A stretch of 64,000 nt of DNA, from assembly GCF_045037415.1 (NCBI RefSeq), contig NZ_CP173438.1; one strand, written 5' to 3'. Position numbers and translations under genes: made by a program. Shown piece by piece: positions 6,301 through 33,982 of this stretch. Positions within the stretch are counted from its first letter, which is position 1, and every line of letters starts with the position of its first letter. The notes below the pieces were generated by a model that was not told the origin of the DNA, did not search any database, and worked only from the letters and a program-made list of their open reading frames with translations. Source of the DNA: Escherichia coli (GTDB taxonomy: Bacteria; Pseudomonadota; Gammaproteobacteria; Enterobacterales; Enterobacteriaceae).

Positions 6301-7828
6301 GACGCTGATCGACCCCTTCGCGCAATAGTTCGCGAGCGACATCCCACGCCTCGTTACGCGCCAGCGGGCCGTTGATTGCCACCACCAGCTGATAAGCCTG
6401 CTCAAACTGGCTGTGCGCGGTTTGCGCCATGCTCATTTTCTGCTCAAGAGAGAGCATTTTTTCGGTCGCTTCCAGCTCTTTCGCCTGGAAGGTTTCCAGC
6501 CATTCGGCAGCGCTGTCGGCGGTTAAGTCCGGCAGATGGCACAGTTCTTTGGCACGATTAAGCGCAGCAATCGCCTGGTTATACTGGATCGCGCGCGTTT
6601 GCTGGACGTCCAGCGCCTGCTGGTAGTCAGCAAGCTGGCTTTTCAGCTCGTCCACTTCCAGTTCGGCAGCTTCCGCACGAGCCTCGTTCTCTTCCTGGCG
6701 TTCGATGGCTTCTGCCACCACTTCGTTTTGCTCTTCCAGACGGATCTGCAGCTCATCGAGATCCGCTTCGTAGCGTTCGATCTTCTCCTGCTGACGCAGT
6801 GCGGTTTGCACCAGGTTCAGGTGATCGCTGGCCGCCTGATAATCCGCTTCCAGATCGCCTTCGGCACCGTTGTGCTCAGCCAGCTCTCGCGCCATGTCGA
6901 CGTGTTTGTACTGCTCAGCCGCCAGTTGCTGACGCGAAGTATGTAGCTCGCGACGAAACTCCAGGGCCTTATCGAGATGAACACGGCGCTCGTTGGCGTG
7001 ACGCATGTAGTCCGCCGCCACGTAGTTGGTGGCTTCGCTGATCAGATGCTTAAACAGGTCACGGTCCGACTGGGTGACACGAATCGCTTCCAGCGTCATG
7101 CGGTTTTCACGCAGCGCCGCTTCCATGTCCTGGAACGCTTTCCACACCCCACTGTTTTCCGGCAACAGGTAGTCGCGCAGAGAACGAGTAATGGCGCTGG
7201 AGATCCCGCCATACAGCGAGGCTTCGATCAGACGATAGAATTTACTACGGTCAGACGCTGAGCGCAGACGACGCGCGATGATGCCCAGATCGAACATCAG
7301 CGAGTGGTAATCGGTAATGGAGTTGAACTGTTTAAACTGCACGCCTTCCATCGCCTCGAGCTTGTCTTTCAGCTCGTTAAGCGGCAGCACGCGCGCCTGG
7401 CGTTCGTTCAGAGTTTCGGTCACCAGTTGTGTCGGCTGCACCGACATCGGCAGTCCCTGAATGGCAAACGGCTTGATATCCACTTTACGATCGCGTCCGG
7501 CAACCTGTTGCAGACGCACACCGACCACCACGCGCTGGTGACGCGAGTTAATGGTGTCGAGCATCGAATAACAGACACCCGCTTTCAGCTTACCGTGCAG
7601 ACCTTTATCGCGCGAACCGCTGGTGGCCCCGGCTTCCGTAGTGTTACGGAAATGCAGCAGGGTCAGATCGGGGATAAGCGCCGTAACGAACGCCGCCATG
7701 GTGGTGGATTTACCCGCCCCGTTACCGCCAGAAAGCGTCGTGACCAGCTCGTCAAGGTCAAAAGTTCGGGCAAAAAAGCCGTTCCAGTTAATCAGCGTCA
7801 GTGAGCGAAATTTACCGCGTTCAATCAT
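3368..7828 (-). CDS. mukB: Chromosome partition protein MukB (SMC-like condensin)
   Basis: 1486 aa; N-terminal Walker [10 protein letters not shown]; very long coiled-coil; mukF-mukE-mukB order. Confidence 0.95.
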
Positions 7829-29097: not shown

Positions 29098-30838
29098 TGC
29101 TGCGGGCCGGTGTGGTCAGCGTGGCCATGACTTCATCCAGTGCGGCTTCCGGTACGCCGTCCGGGTACTGTGCCGTTAACTGGCGGTAATGTTCCGGCGT
29201 CCAGGTAAGGCCGTCGGCGCTGAACTTATCGCGCAGGGCTTTCGCGGCCTCCACATGAGTCATGGGACGTTGTTCAGTGCGCGGCCCGCGTACGTCAGAG
29301 GCCTGACCACGCTTCGGCATATAGGCCGGAAGTGTGGTGTCGTCGATATGTTTATACGGGTCAAGCCGCCCGCCGAACGGCAGCGCCTTCGCCTTGCGTG
29401 CGGCGGCTGCATCTGCGGCGTTGTCTGTACCGGTAACCAGCGCTTCGGTTTCTTTTGCCGCCATCTGTGCCGGGGTTTCCGGCAGGGCTTTGTAACTTTC
29501 GCCAAATACCGCCGCGCCTTCAGCAAAGCCAAACTCGTTCTTTCTGACCTCTTCGACCAGGAAGAACGTCTCGTGGCCGTCCTCACCGGTCAGAACCACC
29601 TGTGCCACATCGCTGCGCCATGGGTTACGGGTAATCATCAGTTTTTCACCAACCAGTACGCCCGGTACCGTTGATACGTCAAATTCAGTGCCCCGGAACG
29701 AGACACGAAGTTTTGGCGTGACTTTGCGGAGTTCTGGTGCCGCCACAGCCAGTTCACGACATACCTCAACGGAAGGCGCTTTTTTCAGCTGCTCAGCAGT
29801 AATCTTCAGCCAGATATCCGTGCGGGTTTTACCGTGGCGGCTGTGAACAGCCGTGGCGTTAAAGTGGCTGCGCCATTTCGCGGCCAGCGCGTTGAGTTCT
29901 TCCAGACTGTGAACCGGCCGGAACTTCAGACCCGGCTCCAGCTTGCGTTCGATAATGTCACGCGCCTTTTCCACCTGTCCGGTGGCGCGGGCGTTATGCG
30001 GCTTGTGCGCTATCAGGTCGATGCCCAGTGAGCGGCACATGTTTTTCGTCATACCCGCGGTGTTTGCCGAGCCGGGGTCGAGATAGAGTATTTTCGGCAC
30101 GCCGTGCAGCACGTCTGCGCCGCCACGCTCCTGCATGGCGTTGATAAGCACAGAACACAGGTTCTCACCTGATTCCGCGCCCGTCACATACTCAACGTAA
30201 ATCCAGCCGCTGGCATGGTCGGTAATCTCGTAACTCCACACGCGGTCACTGGCGATACGGGCAAGGTTAGCGGGCTTGTTCTTGTAGAACTTCGCGCTGT
30301 CCATCACCTGCAGCCCTTTATGTCCATTGCTCAGGTAGTAAAGCGTGCAGAGTGAGGCGTCAATCTGCCAGACATGATTGGGATGCAGACTGGCCACTTC
30401 GGTATGTGGTGCAGGGGCATCCAGTTGTTCCGGGTGCAGGCCATAGTTACGCAGAGCACGGCTGATGGCATCTTCAGACAACGGGAAAAACTCACTGGTG
30501 GTTTCATCTGTTCTGCCTGCGGTGATAAAGCCGTTAGCCCGCAGGGTTTCCACTGCATCTGCGATGGAATAGAGACGCTTACCGTTCTTGCGGGTGGCCT
30601 CACGCAGTGTGGCAGATATCAGCGCGGCTTCGTCGCGGGTCAGGGCGCTGCGCCCGGCATCGGCGCGTTTTTTGCGTTTATCAGTCACAGATACCTCCTT
30701 CAGCCTGCGCAGCAGAGTGGCGCGGGACATGCCAAGTTCAGCACAGGCAGCGTCGTATATTGCACCGCGTTTACCATGCCCCGCGTCACGTGCCGCGCGG
30801 GCTGTTTCAACCAGTTTTTCAGTCAGTGCCGGGGTCAT
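29069..30838 (-). CDS. DDE transposase (Mu A-like, rve/integrase core)
   Basis: 589 aa; N-terminal HTH; catalytic core HVWQIDASL...YLDPGSANTAG...ATGQVE consistent with D,D,E triad. Confidence 0.8.
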   Translation of the reverse strand: MTPALTEKLVETARAARDAGHGKRGAIYDAACAELGMSRATLLRRLKEVSVTDKRKKRADAGRSALTRDEAALISATLREATRKNGKRLYSIADAVETLRANGFITAGRTDETTSEFFPLSEDAISRALRNYGLHPEQLDAPAPHTEVASLHPNHVWQIDASLCTLYYLSNGHKGLQVMDSAKFYKNKPANLARIASDRVWSYEITDHASGWIYVEYVTGAESGENLCSVLINAMQERGGADVLHGVPKILYLDPGSANTAGMTKNMCRSLGIDLIAHKPHNARATGQVEKARDIIERKLEPGLKFRPVHSLEELNALAAKWRSHFNATAVHSRHGKTRTDIWLKITAEQLKKAPSVEVCRELAVAAPELRKVTPKLRVSFRGTEFDVSTVPGVLVGEKLMITRNPWRSDVAQVVLTGEDGHETFFLVEEVRKNEFGFAEGAAVFGESYKALPETPAQMAAKETEALVTGTDNAADAAAARKAKALPFGGRLDPYKHIDDTTLPAYMPKRGQASDVRGPRTEQRPMTHVEAAKALRDKFSADGLTWTPEHYRQLTAQYPDGVPEAALDEVMATLTTPARSSVISIVNGN

Positions 30839-30853
30839 AGCTTGTCTTCCCTG

Positions 30854-31171
30854 TTATCCGATTCTGGCGGCAATTTTTCTGGCGAGGTCGCACAGTGTTT
30901 CGCCATCGCAGGTTTTCACCACGGTATTTACCGGTTGCGGTGCAACTACCGGGCGTAATGCTGACTGATTCTGCAGACGTCTTATCTGCTGCATCAGCAT
31001 CACCTCCATCGTCAGTACAAACGGGTGCGTCTCCTGTGCGGGTACGCAGATTTCACCGGAAGGGGTCACCACGCGGAAACCCTGCACCATCTCCGGCAGC
31101 AGATTACACAGTGCGTGCCCCAGTGCCTCCGGGCTGTCCATCAGGGTATTTTGTGTGTTATTCGTATTCAT
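30854..31171 (-). CDS. Hypothetical protein (105 aa)
   Basis: Operon-coupled between transposase and the 306-aa ORF; no motif recognised. Confidence 0.35.
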   Translation of the reverse strand: MNTNNTQNTLMDSPEALGHALCNLLPEMVQGFRVVTPSGEICVPAQETHPFVLTMEVMLMQQIRRLQNQSALRPVVAPQPVNTVVKTCDGETLCDLARKIAARIG

Positions 31172-32091
31172 TACTGCATATCCTCCGGTCGGTTGATTTC
31201 AGGTTCCGGTTCGGTCAGCCAGGCGGGGGCATCGTTACCCGATGGAGCGGCCTCAAGGTCAAACGTCTCACGTAATGCATGAACACTGCGTTCAATCTGG
31301 CAGACCAGACCGGCCATGAAATCTCTGGGGGTATCGATCATGTTTTTGGTGCAGTATTCACACAGGGTCTCAAAAACACTGGACAGCCGGACGGCGATAG
31401 CCGATTCGGCCTCAACCGCTAATGCCGTCACTTCCGCCCGCAATTTTTTCAGTTCTTCGTCTGGCGGCGGAGGTTGCAGGCGCGATTTCTTCTCCAGTTT
31501 TGTGGCCAGTTCGTTGATTTTTTCGTCCTTTCCGGCAAGCACCTGTTGCTGAGCTGCGTTGGTTTCGCGCGCTTCACGCAGGGCGGCCTTCAGTTCGCGG
31601 CTGGTCATGCGATCAATATCATCAAGCGTTGCACCGGCGACGGTTCCACCATCAGCTAATGCGTCGAGTTCTTCGTCATCCAGAACCATCAGTTCATATA
31701 ACTTGGTTTTTCCCAAAACGCTCAGCGCTGAGCGTTTTGGCTGTTCATCTCCATTGCCGAGAAATTTCACGCTGGCCTGCATCATGCGACGAGCTACCTG
31801 TGGTGCTAATCCGAGGTCGTTTTCCAGAATATTTGTGAAATCACCATGCGGTTCATTTTCTTTTAAGATGATCAGCCGCTTACCCGCTTCCAACATAGAT
31901 TCAGCACTCTGCGCCATATAAAAACGTGCTTCGTGAACGATGCGTTCACGTTCATAAGGCAGTCCATCACCAAACTGCTGCATGATCTCCATGCGATGCT
32001 GTGTCATGGCATTCAGGCTGACGTTGAGATCATCCGACAGCGGTACATCGGCGTTCAGTTCAGTGTTAATCGGTGATTTGGTACGTCCCAT
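31171..32091 (-). CDS. Hypothetical coiled-coil protein (306 aa)
   Basis: Long predicted coiled-coil in the central region; located between ner and transposase, a position empty in Mu. Confidence 0.4.
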   Translation of the reverse strand: MGRTKSPINTELNADVPLSDDLNVSLNAMTQHRMEIMQQFGDGLPYERERIVHEARFYMAQSAESMLEAGKRLIILKENEPHGDFTNILENDLGLAPQVARRMMQASVKFLGNGDEQPKRSALSVLGKTKLYELMVLDDEELDALADGGTVAGATLDDIDRMTSRELKAALREARETNAAQQQVLAGKDEKINELATKLEKKSRLQPPPPDEELKKLRAEVTALAVEAESAIAVRLSSVFETLCEYCTKNMIDTPRDFMAGLVCQIERSVHALRETFDLEAAPSGNDAPAWLTEPEPEINRPEDMQ

Positions 32092-32101
32092 TGATTACTC
32101 C

Positions 32102-32416
32102 TTACAAACGACTACCTGAAATGACACGTTGGTTAATTTCGTTAATACGATCCTGTGCACGTGCCATCTCGTTACTGTGGGCCATGGCGATCTGCAGTAA
32201 CTGGATGCCCGGTGCAAAACGTCCGTTCTCCAGTTTCAGAGCCAGCCCTTCTTCAATGAGGGTGTTGAGTGCCCGGTTGATGTTTGCCGGTGACTCGTGC
32301 AGTGCTGTCGCCAGTTCACCGTTAGAAATACCGTTCAGGGCATGACCGCGCAGCGCTTTGAGTACCCGGAGGATGCGACTGCCGGAGCTTGAAACATTCG
32401 TCTTACTCATCTGCAT
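32102..32416 (-). CDS. Putative winged-helix DNA-binding protein (104 aa)
   Basis: Segment RILRVLKALRGHALNGISNGELATALHESPANINRALNTLIEEGLA resembles an IclR/MarR-type wHTH. Confidence 0.4.
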   Translation of the reverse strand: MQMSKTNVSSSGSRILRVLKALRGHALNGISNGELATALHESPANINRALNTLIEEGLALKLENGRFAPGIQLLQIAMAHSNEMARAQDRINEINQRVISGSRL

Positions 32417-32462
32417 ACCTCTTTTGCGATATGTGATAACCTTTTACAAAGACTCAAAATAT

Positions 32463-32651
32463 TTAGGCCGCCTGAGCTGTTGATTTCAGTCCCAACTTCA
32501 CGGCGATTTCATGGGATTTACCGTAACGGGCTTTGGTCTGCCCGTTGAGAACGCGGTATACCTCATTGCGGTTGTAGCCGTTTTCTTCTGCCCAGCGGGT
32601 GAAAGTGATCCCGCGCTGGCGGAAGAGAGCTTTGACTTGTTCTGCAGTCAT
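32463..32651 (-). CDS. ner: Ner-like DNA-binding regulator
   Basis: 62 aa; first gene of the leftward early operon, divergent from repressor; Ner/Nlp-like HTH by recall. Confidence 0.6.
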   Translation of the reverse strand: MTAEQVKALFRQRGITFTRWAEENGYNRNEVYRVLNGQTKARYGKSHEIAVKLGLKSTAQAA

Positions 32652-32703
32652 CGTTGTCTCCTTTGTTGATGCAATGATGTTTGCCTTATATGTGTTAGAT
32701 TAT

Positions 32704-32721
32704 TGCTCATAATTATGAGCA
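32704..32721. promoter_or_regulatory. Candidate operator: perfect 18-bp palindrome TGCTCATAATTATGAGCA in the ner/repressor divergent intergenic region
   Basis: Read directly; centred in the 93-bp gap between divergent ner and repressor starts; half-site ATGAGCA recurs at 32745. Confidence 0.5.
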
Positions 32722-32744
32722 TATCAAGATAGAGATTCACTTTT

Positions 32745-33101
32745 ATGAGCAAAGATATAGGAGAGCGCGTTATTTCTGTGAGGAAGAAAGCAGGGTTGAA
32801 CCAGAGAGAATTTGCAGCTCGTTTAGGTATTTCTAATGGTGGTATCAGTCAGATTGAAAATGGAAAGGCGATGCCTGGAGGGGAGTTTCTGTTAAAGATG
32901 CATCAAGAGTTTAATGTTGATGTAAATTGGTTGCTCACTGGAATGAGCACAGATGGTATGACTAGAAACCAGAATCAAATTTCCCCAGAAAAACAAAAAC
33001 TAATAGATACTTTTGACGACATGACACCAGACCAACAACGCTCATTTCTTGAGATTGGGCGATTCTATACTCAGCCAAAACCAGGAAAAATCGCAGGCTG
33101 A
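32745..33101 (+). CDS. Prophage repressor (XRE-family HTH)
   Basis: 118 aa; N-terminal HTH LNQREFAARLGISNGGISQIENGKAMP; divergent from ner. Confidence 0.65.
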   Translation: MSKDIGERVISVRKKAGLNQREFAARLGISNGGISQIENGKAMPGGEFLLKMHQEFNVDVNWLLTGMSTDGMTRNQNQISPEKQKLIDTFDDMTPDQQRSFLEIGRFYTQPKPGKIAG

Positions 33102-33186
33102 TACTGACCCGGACACAAAGGACAGGTGGTTGATCTGGATGCTTTCAGAAAACATCGCCAGTGACATAGTGGAAGTTGTTTGGTTT

Positions 33187-33218
33187 ACCGGAAAGCATTG
33201 TGCTTTCCGGTTTTGTTT
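33187..33218 (+). terminator. Rho-independent terminator after repressor gene
   Basis: Hairpin accggaaagca-ttg-tgctttccggt followed by ttttgttt. Confidence 0.5.
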
Positions 33219-33982
33219 CAGAAGTTGCAGATTAGCAGTTCACGGCGCGGCGTGGGTTTACCCGCCAGACTGTAGTTGATATTCACTGTCTGTATGTTCA
33301 GTCCAGTGAACACCTCGCGCATCTGCGGGATGTCGTTCACCGAAATTATCATTTTTCCTCTGATGCACCGGGCCAGCTCTGCCAGCCGCGAGTAGTTCCC
33401 TTCAGGAAAATCCACACCATAGCCTTCCGTACCCAGGTACGGTGGGTCGCAGTAGAACAGCGTGTGCGGACGATCATAACGCTCAATGCACTGTTGCCAG
33501 TCCATGTGTTCTATGACTGTTCTGGAAAGCCGCAGGTGTGCCGCTGACAGTTCTTCTTCAATACGTAGCAGGTTGAAGCGTGGCGGGGATGTGGTGGAGG
33601 TACCGAAGCTGTGCTCTGCCACCTTGCCGCCAAACGCCTGCTTCTGAAGGTAGTAGAACCGTGCCGCACGCTGGATATCCGTCAGTGTTTCTTCCGGGGT
33701 GATCTGCAGCCATTTGTAGATCTGACGGCTGACCAGCGCCCATTTGAACTGGCGGACAAATTCTTCCAGGTGATGCTTTACCACCCGGTACAGATTCACC
33801 AGTTCACCGTTGATATCATTGATGACTTCGATCTTGCCGGGTGTCTTAAGAAAATAGAGCGCTGCTGCCCCACAAAACGGCTCCACATAACATTCATGCG
33901 CCGGAAACAGCGGCAGAATGTGTTTTGCAAGGCGGCGTTTGCCACCAATCCACGGCACGATGGGTAATGTCTGCATTTTCAT
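33218..33982 (-). CDS. Dam-like N6-adenine DNA methyltransferase (D12 class)
   Basis: ORF 33218..34072; likely start MKMQTLPIVPWIGGKRRL at 33982; SAM-binding FCGAAA and catalytic DPPY motifs. Confidence 0.7.
   Translation of the reverse strand: MKMQTLPIVPWIGGKRRLAKHILPLFPAHECYVEPFCGAAALYFLKTPGKIEVINDINGELVNLYRVVKHHLEEFVRQFKWALVSRQIYKWLQITPEETLTDIQRAARFYYLQKQAFGGKVAEHSFGTSTTSPPRFNLLRIEEELSAAHLRLSRTVIEHMDWQQCIERYDRPHTLFYCDPPYLGTEGYGVDFPEGNYSRLAELARCIRGKMIISVNDIPQMREVFTGLNIQTVNINYSLAGKPTPRRELLICNF

Follow-up and report, generated by a model that had tools for sequence, protein, structure and literature searches.

A predicted operator of the short XRE-type repressor in the early-promoter spacer of a BcepMu-like Escherichia coli prophage

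Introduction

In the transposable phage Mu, the lysis/lysogeny switch consists of the promoters Pe and Pc and the operators O1 to O3, and the Mu repressor blocks Pe. The operators of phage P22, like the element described below, are 18 bp long. Auxiliary operators and DNA looping are known from several systems, with lac O2 lying in lacZ, gal OI lying in galE, and OL and OR acting together in lambda.

Closer to the locus considered here are the transposable phages of the BcepMu and B3 types. In Fc02, a member of the B3 family, the temperature-sensitive substitution G64E in the homologous short repressor derepresses the promoter pE upon a temperature shift, and the resulting burst of transcription begins at the ner-like gene (PMC9936078). 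Promoters pE and pC2 that overlap are reported for B3 and Fc02; in Fc02, the gap that holds them measures 106 bp and a distal promoter, pC1, is described as well, but operators are not (PMC9936078). In the literature that we found, no operators are described for phages of the BcepMu/B3 type, the B3 and BcepMu genome papers, which might mention palindromes, lying outside that search.

We analyzed a window of 64 kb of E. coli DNA, by which we mean the whole stretch at its full length. The original prediction for this DNA was that a perfect 18-bp palindrome, situated between the divergent starts of a repressor gene and a ner gene, is an operator of the lysis/lysogeny switch. Based on comparison with related loci, we propose that this palindrome, O1, serves the prophage's 118-aa XRE-type repressor as its high-affinity operator, that the repressor would silence the early promoter Pe from it and thereby keep the prophage lysogenic, and that two more elements, O2 and O3, are further sites for the same protein. 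We put the probability of this reading at about 85%.

Results

The prophage and its divergent immunity region

The window carries a BcepMu-like (Mu-like) transposable prophage of E. coli ST131. Over the 1-kb segment 32102-33101, the window does not differ from Escherichia phage PhiKM (PQ738613.1; 100% identity), which is classed in Bcepmuvirus, and the immunity type is found at ≥99% identity in 390 of 5,426 complete E. coli genomes, those listed including ST131 strains such as JJ1887. In JJ1887, the prophage adjoins ycaL and the early operon extends from the control region as far as a Mor gene at the prophage end. The GenBank record of PhiKM leaves the 118-aa repressor ORF unannotated; in its place, it has a 41-aa ORF on the other strand (6941-7066 of the record, 33042-33167 of the window).

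The control region is a 93-bp AT-rich gap, 32652-32744, bounded exactly by two divergent ORFs, the minus-strand one at 32651..32463 and the plus-strand one at 32745..33101. The genes and the element that close this region are as follows.

32463..32651, minus strand: 62-aa DNA-binding protein of the gp16 family (TIGR04111, phrog_925), first gene of the early operon, in the position of ner in Mu
32745..33101, plus strand: immunity repressor of 118 aa with an HTH_3/XRE domain, consisting of an N-terminal helix-turn-helix (HTH) domain of the 434/P22 c2 type, a linker and a C-terminal helical hairpin
33187..33211, plus strand: strong terminator-like hairpin of 11 pairs followed by a T-run, 3' of the repressor gene and before a convergent Dam methylase gene

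The gp16-family gene is followed on the minus strand by an IclR-like HTH gene, a DUF3102 gene and a DDE (rve) transposase gene, which, together with the divergent HTH repressor, gives the BcepMu/B3-like layout; BcepMu gp16/gp17 and B3 ORF17/ORF18 are arranged as in the window. As in B3/Fc02 (Beetrevirus) and BcepMu, the early operon begins with a gp16-family gene, a short HTH repressor is encoded divergently, the control region measures ~100 bp, and a palindrome lies in the spacer of the early promoter. The sequence of the operator and the DNA-binding domain of the repressor differ from theirs, making this a separate immunity type.

The c/ner region of Mu is similar in that the phage is transposable, the repressor gene diverges from the early genes, and a short control region holds three operators, which here are predicted. 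The differences are several. The repressor is of the XRE type, whereas c of Mu is of the MuA-like winged-helix type; the early operon points to the near prophage end, as it does in BcepMu; and neither an IHF site nor a role as an enhancer was found. Furthermore, the 62-aa gene, which had been called ner, holds that name by position only: its product is a member of the BcepMu gp16 family (97 bits against TIGR04111; phrog_925) and scores 17.9 bits against the Pfam family of Ner proteins (HTH_35, PF13693), below the cut-off of 25. A sequence search with this protein against solved structures returned no match. Its role is presumably that of a Cro- or Ner-like regulator. In most lineages, the ner-like protein has -AA at its C terminus (AQAA, TDAA, SNAA, SLAA or KLAA; 32463-32474 in the window), recalling ssrA-type degradation tags, and such an ending could make the protein short-lived.

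A perfect palindrome between the divergent starts

The sequence TGCTCATAATTATGAGCA at 32704-32721 is a perfect gapless palindrome of 18 bp, TGCTCA-TAATTA-TGAGCA, so that both the location and the symmetry claimed for it were confirmed.

32704..32721, no strand: O1, predicted primary operator; the palindrome is the spacer of Pe, and its arms are kept and its center varies in orthologous loci

It occurs once in the 64-kb window, even when up to 3 mismatches are allowed. The half-site TTATGAGCA is found again at 32743-32751, across the repressor ATG at 32745, in agreement with the recurrence that had been noted at the start codon; the window holds 3 copies of this half-site, two of them being the arms of O1, against 0.52 expected. 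The gapped pattern TGCTCA-N6-TGAGCA has exactly 2 occurrences in the window, at 32704 and 32932, both of them in the immunity region.

Perfect palindromes of this length are not rare by themselves. In simulations, a 64-kb stretch held 0.25 perfect gapless 18-bp palindromes on average, with a probability of 0.22 of finding at least one, and the window does contain a second one (31718-31735). That O1 arose by chance in AT-rich intergenic DNA has nevertheless a negligible probability, given that the expectation within the 93-bp gap is ~5e-4, that the arm pattern is found again at a distance of just 228 bp, and that, as described below, the arms are kept in six orthologous loci and the same design is found across the family.

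The palindrome is the spacer of the predicted early promoter

A promoter scan of 30800-33300 predicted a single consensus sigma-70 promoter, the leftward (minus-strand) Pe, TTGATA-17-AATAAT, which matches the consensus at 10 of 12 positions and has O1 as its spacer.

32722..32727, minus strand: -35 hexamer of Pe, TTGATA, between O1 and O2, with a -35-like hexamer at the same place in relatives
32699..32704, minus strand: -10 hexamer of Pe, AATAAT, whose first base is the last base of O1

The geometry, in which the palindrome overlaps the predicted early promoter as its spacer, is the same in 45 related loci, and in these 45 loci the -10 hexamer ends 44 to 49 nt upstream of the gp16 ATG. Pe is the strong promoter predicted to drive the operon that runs from the gene in the ner position (gp16) to the transposase gene.

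On the plus strand of 30800-33300, the consensus scan found neither a promoter for the repressor gene nor a distal promoter comparable to pC1. Two further elements of the gap are candidates for a function in the switch.

32693..32701, plus strand: candidate extended -10 element, TGtTAGATT (in TGTTAGATT), of a rightward repressor promoter, overlapping the -10 hexamer of Pe on the opposite strand
32664..32685, minus strand: leader element CAAACATCATTGCATCA, between the -10 hexamer of Pe and the ribosome-binding site of gp16

The motif TGnTAGATT is kept in all E. coli immunity types and is a candidate for the extended -10 element of the repressor promoter. The CAAACATCATTGCATCA leader is kept from Enterobacterales, including E. 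coli, to Pseudomonas and Xanthomonadales, in contrast to the neighboring promoter spacer, which is hypervariable; across the family, the conserved sequence 3' of the -10 hexamer reads CAAACATC(A/T)TTGCATCA...GGAG. From this conservation, the leader is a candidate binding site of the gp16 protein or a candidate RNA element. Separately, ATATGTGATA (32429-32438), which lies between the ner-like and IclR-like genes, resembles ATATGTGTTA of the control region (32688-32697) at 9 of 10 bases. The distal repressor promoter pC1 of Fc02 is antisense to the part of the operon that matches the ATATGTGATA region; around 32429-32438, the scan found no consensus promoter.

A short repressor with a 434/P22 c2-type DNA-binding domain

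The repressor matches the HTH_3 (cro/C1-type) family PF01381 of Pfam with an E value of 4.6e-15 and a score of 55.8 bits, against a cut-off of 23. Its AlphaFold model (pLDDT 81) comprises five N-terminal helices (residues 3 to 65), a disordered linker, a helical hairpin (residues 81 to 109) and a floppy tail. With Foldseek, the N-terminal domain aligned to P22 c2 with 35% identity and an rmsd of 1.2 Å over 63 residues, and to the 434 repressor with 41 to 42% identity; SinR was also matched. The locus thus resembles the 434 and P22 c2 systems in having the same DNA-binding fold. Unlike those repressors, the protein has just 118 aa and a predicted two-helix hairpin at its C terminus in place of the Peptidase_S24/LexA-like domain; Pfam reported no Peptidase_S24 self-cleavage domain, which sets it apart from the cleavable repressors of the lambda cI/LexA type.

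The organization of a short phage-repressor-like HTH domain followed by a C-terminal helical multimerization hook recalls that of SinR from Bacillus subtilis. The full-length alignment to SinR (in the SinR/SinI complex, 1b0n_A) is loose, with an rmsd of 10.3 Å, so that the order of the domains alone is comparable, and no SinI-like partner was identified. The C-terminal ~40 residues of the repressor (81-118; 32985-33098 in the window), SPEKQxLxDAFDxMxPEQRRxxLExG...KPxKxAG, are common to E. coli repressors with unrelated DNA-binding domains. The modeled hairpin may therefore be a common oligomerization module or else the target of an anti-repressor, and its conservation across immunity types hints at a repressor oligomer that could bridge two operators.

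The palindrome changes with the repressor

The other E. coli immunity types keep the ner-proximal half of the gap up to ...TAGATTAT, and this half is followed directly by a different palindrome of ~18 bp and then by a -35-like hexamer on the minus strand.

Type L002: palindrome TATCCCAATAATGGGATA, -35-like hexamer TTTACA
Type L007: palindrome TATACACAAATGTGTATA, -35-like hexamer TTGCTT
Type L003: palindrome GGTGCAGATTACCTCACC, -35-like hexamer TTGACT
Types L004 and L005: palindrome ATGAGAACTATTGTTCTCAT, -35-like hexamer TTGACA
Type L006: palindrome GGTAGAAAATTTTCAACC, -35-like hexamer TTGAAA

The window and the L003 type are 97.9% identical through the ner-position gene, and their homology goes no further than 32703, a single base short of the palindrome. 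These two loci encode an identical gp16 protein (WP_000123378.1) and have different palindromes and repressors. The same holds for L002 and L007, which share one gp16 protein (WP_021518100.1), and for L002 and L003, which share an identical IclR-like protein (WP_000047758.1). Because pairs that share these proteins differ in both palindrome and repressor, the palindrome travels with the repressor and not with gp16 or the IclR-like protein.

These pairs bear on the identity of the protein that reads the palindrome. Cro-type proteins often use the operators of the repressors, as in lambda and 434, and the palindrome lies in a control region that gp16 and the repressor share; the palindrome could hence be a Cro-like site of the ner-like protein and not of the repressor. 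We consider this very unlikely. Identical gp16 proteins are paired with unrelated palindromes, gp16 is 73 to 87% conserved across the E. coli types while their palindromes have no arms in common, and what is conserved along with gp16 is not the palindrome but the leader (32664-32685). Of the original view of a control region for both repressor and Ner, the comparison thus supports the repressor as the predicted binder of the palindrome and speaks against Ner in this role.

A host factor or another phage regulator might likewise be the binder, since the early operon encodes a second HTH protein, the IclR-like one, and since the operator region of Mu doubles as a transposition enhancer, which suggests the transposase as a candidate. 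This is unlikely as well, if slightly less so than a gp16 site: L002 and L003, whose palindromes differ, encode one and the same IclR-like protein, host factors leave unexplained why palindromes should be type specific within one host species, and the pairing of type-specific palindromes with conserved transposases argues against the transposase as the reader of the arms.

The spacer palindrome and its co-variation with the repressor across the family

The comparison was extended to a set of 60 loci, which includes the six other E. coli immunity types and 53 loci from a scan with a gp16 alignment, one genome per species. The 53 further loci come from Enterobacterales, Pseudomonas, Photorhabdus, Xenorhabdus, Neisseria, Xanthomonadales, Gallionellaceae and Magnetococcales. 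A spacer with at least 7 of 8 symmetric arm pairs was present in 30 of the 60 loci (22 of the 50 distinct sequences), compared with 1.15% for a random null under the same search; about half of the related loci show weaker spacer symmetry (≤6 of 8 pairs). The early promoter of B3, TTGACA-GGTGCAATATTTGGCAC-CACTAT, and that of BcepMu, TTGACA-GGTAATCAAACGCATAC-CATACT, both have a palindrome in the spacer, and in Fc02 TGGGAC-N6-GTCCCA lies within the pE spacer. The operators of some relatives resemble a CRP site (L048, TGTGATC...GATCACA), with a different spacing.

Among 33 distinct types, the identity between repressor N-terminal domains correlated with the similarity between operator arms (Spearman coefficient of 0.35, permutation p = 2e-4). 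Pairs with N-terminal domains at least 80% identical have 13.4 of 14 arm bases in common, a number that falls to 9.7 at 60 to 80% identity and to ~4.3 below 40%. One exception is L019, from Pseudomonas sp. PH1b, whose operator TGCTCAAAATATTGAGCA has the TGCTCA/TGAGCA arms of O1 and whose repressor has an unrelated DNA-binding domain. This identity appears to be due to convergence, and arm sequence is therefore not one-to-one with repressor sequence. Together with the position in the Pe spacer, the type-specific palindromes and the conservation of the arms in orthologs, the co-variation lends comparative support to the claim that the palindrome is an operator of the lysis/lysogeny switch.

Conservation of the arms in orthologs of the repressor

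A protein search with residues 1 to 72 retrieved relatives with 70 to 87% identity in Klebsiella, Pluralibacter, Citrobacter, Serratia and metagenomes. Six loci encoding them were compared with the window in an alignment of 7 sequences with a mean column identity of 80%. All six have O1 as TGCTCA-N6-TGAGC(A/G), with the centers TTATTT, TTATAA, TAATTG, CAATAA, TTATTA and TAATTA. All six also have O2 as (G/A)ATTCA...ATGAGCA, in which ATGAGCA is an invariant block of 7 bp, and O3 as TGCTCA-N6-TGAGCA at the same position. The longest invariant runs of the alignment are ATGCCTGG, ATGAGCA (O2), TGAGCA and TGCTCA (O3), and TGCTCA and TGAGC (O1), so that operator blocks make up five of the six longest. 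The recognition-helix region of the repressor, LGISNGGISQIE, is nearly invariant in the same group. A further likeness to 434 and P22 c2 is the two-fold symmetry of the operator, whose outer bases are conserved around a variable, AT-rich center.

The pattern of conservation is informative about a role of the palindrome as nucleic acid structure. Perfect arms of 7 to 9 bp could pair, and would be transcribed if the repressor promoter lies upstream, so that the palindrome might work as an RNA stem-loop in the leader of the repressor mRNA, or as a DNA cruciform, instead of as a protein site. The arms of the orthologs never change, however, and thus offer no compensatory pairs, while the would-be loop varies freely; the O3 copy with its other center and the O2 half-site cannot fold alike; and the arm sequence tracks the DNA-binding domain of the repressor. 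We regard a structural role as extremely unlikely and favor a site bound by the repressor.

In the Serratia locus (L064, 854-1408) and in one metagenome locus (L066, 859-1407), a gene of ~183 aa with a Mor domain comes first after the operator and promoter, before the ner-like gene, and uses the same conserved leader.

Two further predicted sites, one of them inside the repressor gene

Each region was searched with its own O1, and the O1 sequences of unrelated types served as controls. The sites predicted in the window are the following.

32734..32751, no strand: O2, predicted weaker, asymmetric operator, GATTCA-CTTTTA-TGAGCA (GATTCACTTTTATGAGCA), with its right arm over the repressor start codon (ATG AGC A)
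32932..32949, no strand: O3, predicted auxiliary operator, TGCTCA-CTGGAA-TGAGCA (TGCTCACTGGAATGAGCA), in repressor codons 63 to 68 (LLTGMS), 228 bp from O1

The center of O2 is 30 bp from that of O1; the match is complete in the right arm and limited to TCA in the left. A cognate second site was found in 21 of 34 distinct immunity types, 19 times 29 to 35 bp away from O1, in the direction of the repressor start or across it, and twice at 20 to 21 bp; for 18 types, no noncognate control scored equally well. Adjacent sites of graded strength that overlap the lytic promoter are likewise known from 434 and P22 c2. The operator considered here differs from theirs in lying in the promoter spacer and not over the hexamers, and the phage is transposable, not lambdoid.

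O3 matches O1 at 13 of 14 arm positions at +228, a score that no noncognate control equals. A cognate distal site is present in 11 of 34 types, that is, O3 is detectable in about one-third of them, 175 to 259 bp away inside the repressor gene and at nonhomologous codons; in 9 of these 11 types, no control scored equally well. Of the 110 degenerate codons in the ortholog alignment, no more than 8 keep the same third base throughout, and the arms of O3 hold 3 of them (Leu63 TTG, Leu64 CTC and Ser68 AGC), while the wobble bases of Thr65 and Gly66, in the center of O3, vary. The conservation of O3 is partly due to protein constraint, the site overlapping the conserved WLLTG motif. We rejected the idea that O3 is a mere by-product of this protein motif, given that WLLTG is encoded by different codons in other immunity types and that the synonymous positions of the arms are invariant.

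The segments 32737-32756 and 32935-32954 are 80% similar, which had raised an internal translation start at the ATG at 32943 as a candidate. It was dropped: the O2 and O3 operator copies explain the similarity, codon 67 is GTG in 5 of 7 orthologs, and the flanking AGAT is not conserved.

An extra cognate site within a coding sequence, held at synonymous positions at a distance of ~200 bp, is reminiscent of lac and gal. The site described here differs in lying within the repressor's own gene, and looping, like oligomerization of the repressor, is in this case a proposal.

Discussion

From the observed sequences, positions, conservation and co-variation with the repressor domain, we infer how binding, cooperativity and looping could operate at this locus, and where the repressor promoter and the gp16 site may lie. 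A repressor dimer would place one HTH motif on each 6-bp arm (TGCTCA and TGAGCA), and the central 6 bp would not be read base by base. Bound to O1 within the spacer, the repressor would exclude RNA polymerase from Pe, so that the operon of the gp16 (ner-like), IclR-like and transposase genes would stay silent and lysogeny would be held. O2, ~three helical turns away on about the same face of the DNA, with the -35 hexamer in between, would probably be filled cooperatively, and its position over the start of the repressor gene suggests that it probably limits transcription of that gene, as a form of negative autoregulation. O3, 228 bp from O1, probably raises occupancy via DNA looping or else acts as a roadblock. 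Upon loss of the repressor, Pe would fire and gp16 would be made. The gp16 protein may then bind the leader at 32664-32685, as the analogy with Ner and Cro suggests; this leader shares sequence with the -35 region of the promoter proposed for the repressor gene.

The overall arrangement is that of a classic textbook repressor/operator switch. What is new lies in the detail, namely, the predicted operator in the promoter spacer throughout the family, the recombination boundary exactly at the -10/operator junction, and the predicted third operator in the repressor gene. We tentatively propose, at somewhat less than even odds, that BcepMu/B3-like phages share a family-wide immunity cassette of fixed geometry, made of a spacer operator, a start-codon operator and, in about one-third of the types, an intragenic third operator that would act with O1 by looping or as a roadblock, and that this cassette is swapped by recombination exactly at the -10/operator junction. 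If this proposal is correct, the family would be a natural library in which >30 repressors and their operators form orthogonal pairs on a single promoter scaffold, and it would offer an undescribed case of an operator held by synonymous-site selection inside a repressor gene.

For the prophage itself, the operator set indicates which DNA to mutate or titrate in order to induce or lock it, and it predicts which related prophages are hetero-immune. More generally, the family comparison supplies a table of repressors and their cognate operators on a promoter scaffold that stays constant; such a table should be useful for the study of HTH recognition and for synthetic circuits.

The second perfect palindrome of the window belongs to a longer element within the DUF3102 early gene. 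This element, CCAAAACGCTCAGCGCTGAGCGTTTTGG at 31713-31740, is a 28-bp perfect palindrome composed of an A-tract, a GC hairpin and a T-tract. Its inner part, 31718-31735, was considered as a fourth operator and rejected, its GCTCA/TGAGC arms being spaced by N4 and not by N6 and the element being absent from most related types. The 28-bp palindrome as a whole is likewise absent from most other types. From its sequence, it looks like a bidirectional terminator and may attenuate sense or antisense transcription through the early operon. Its RNA fold has a z score of -3.55, and the IAI39-type relative L005 retains a 26-bp palindrome by way of a compensatory change in the center, from CAGCGCTG to CAACGTTG.
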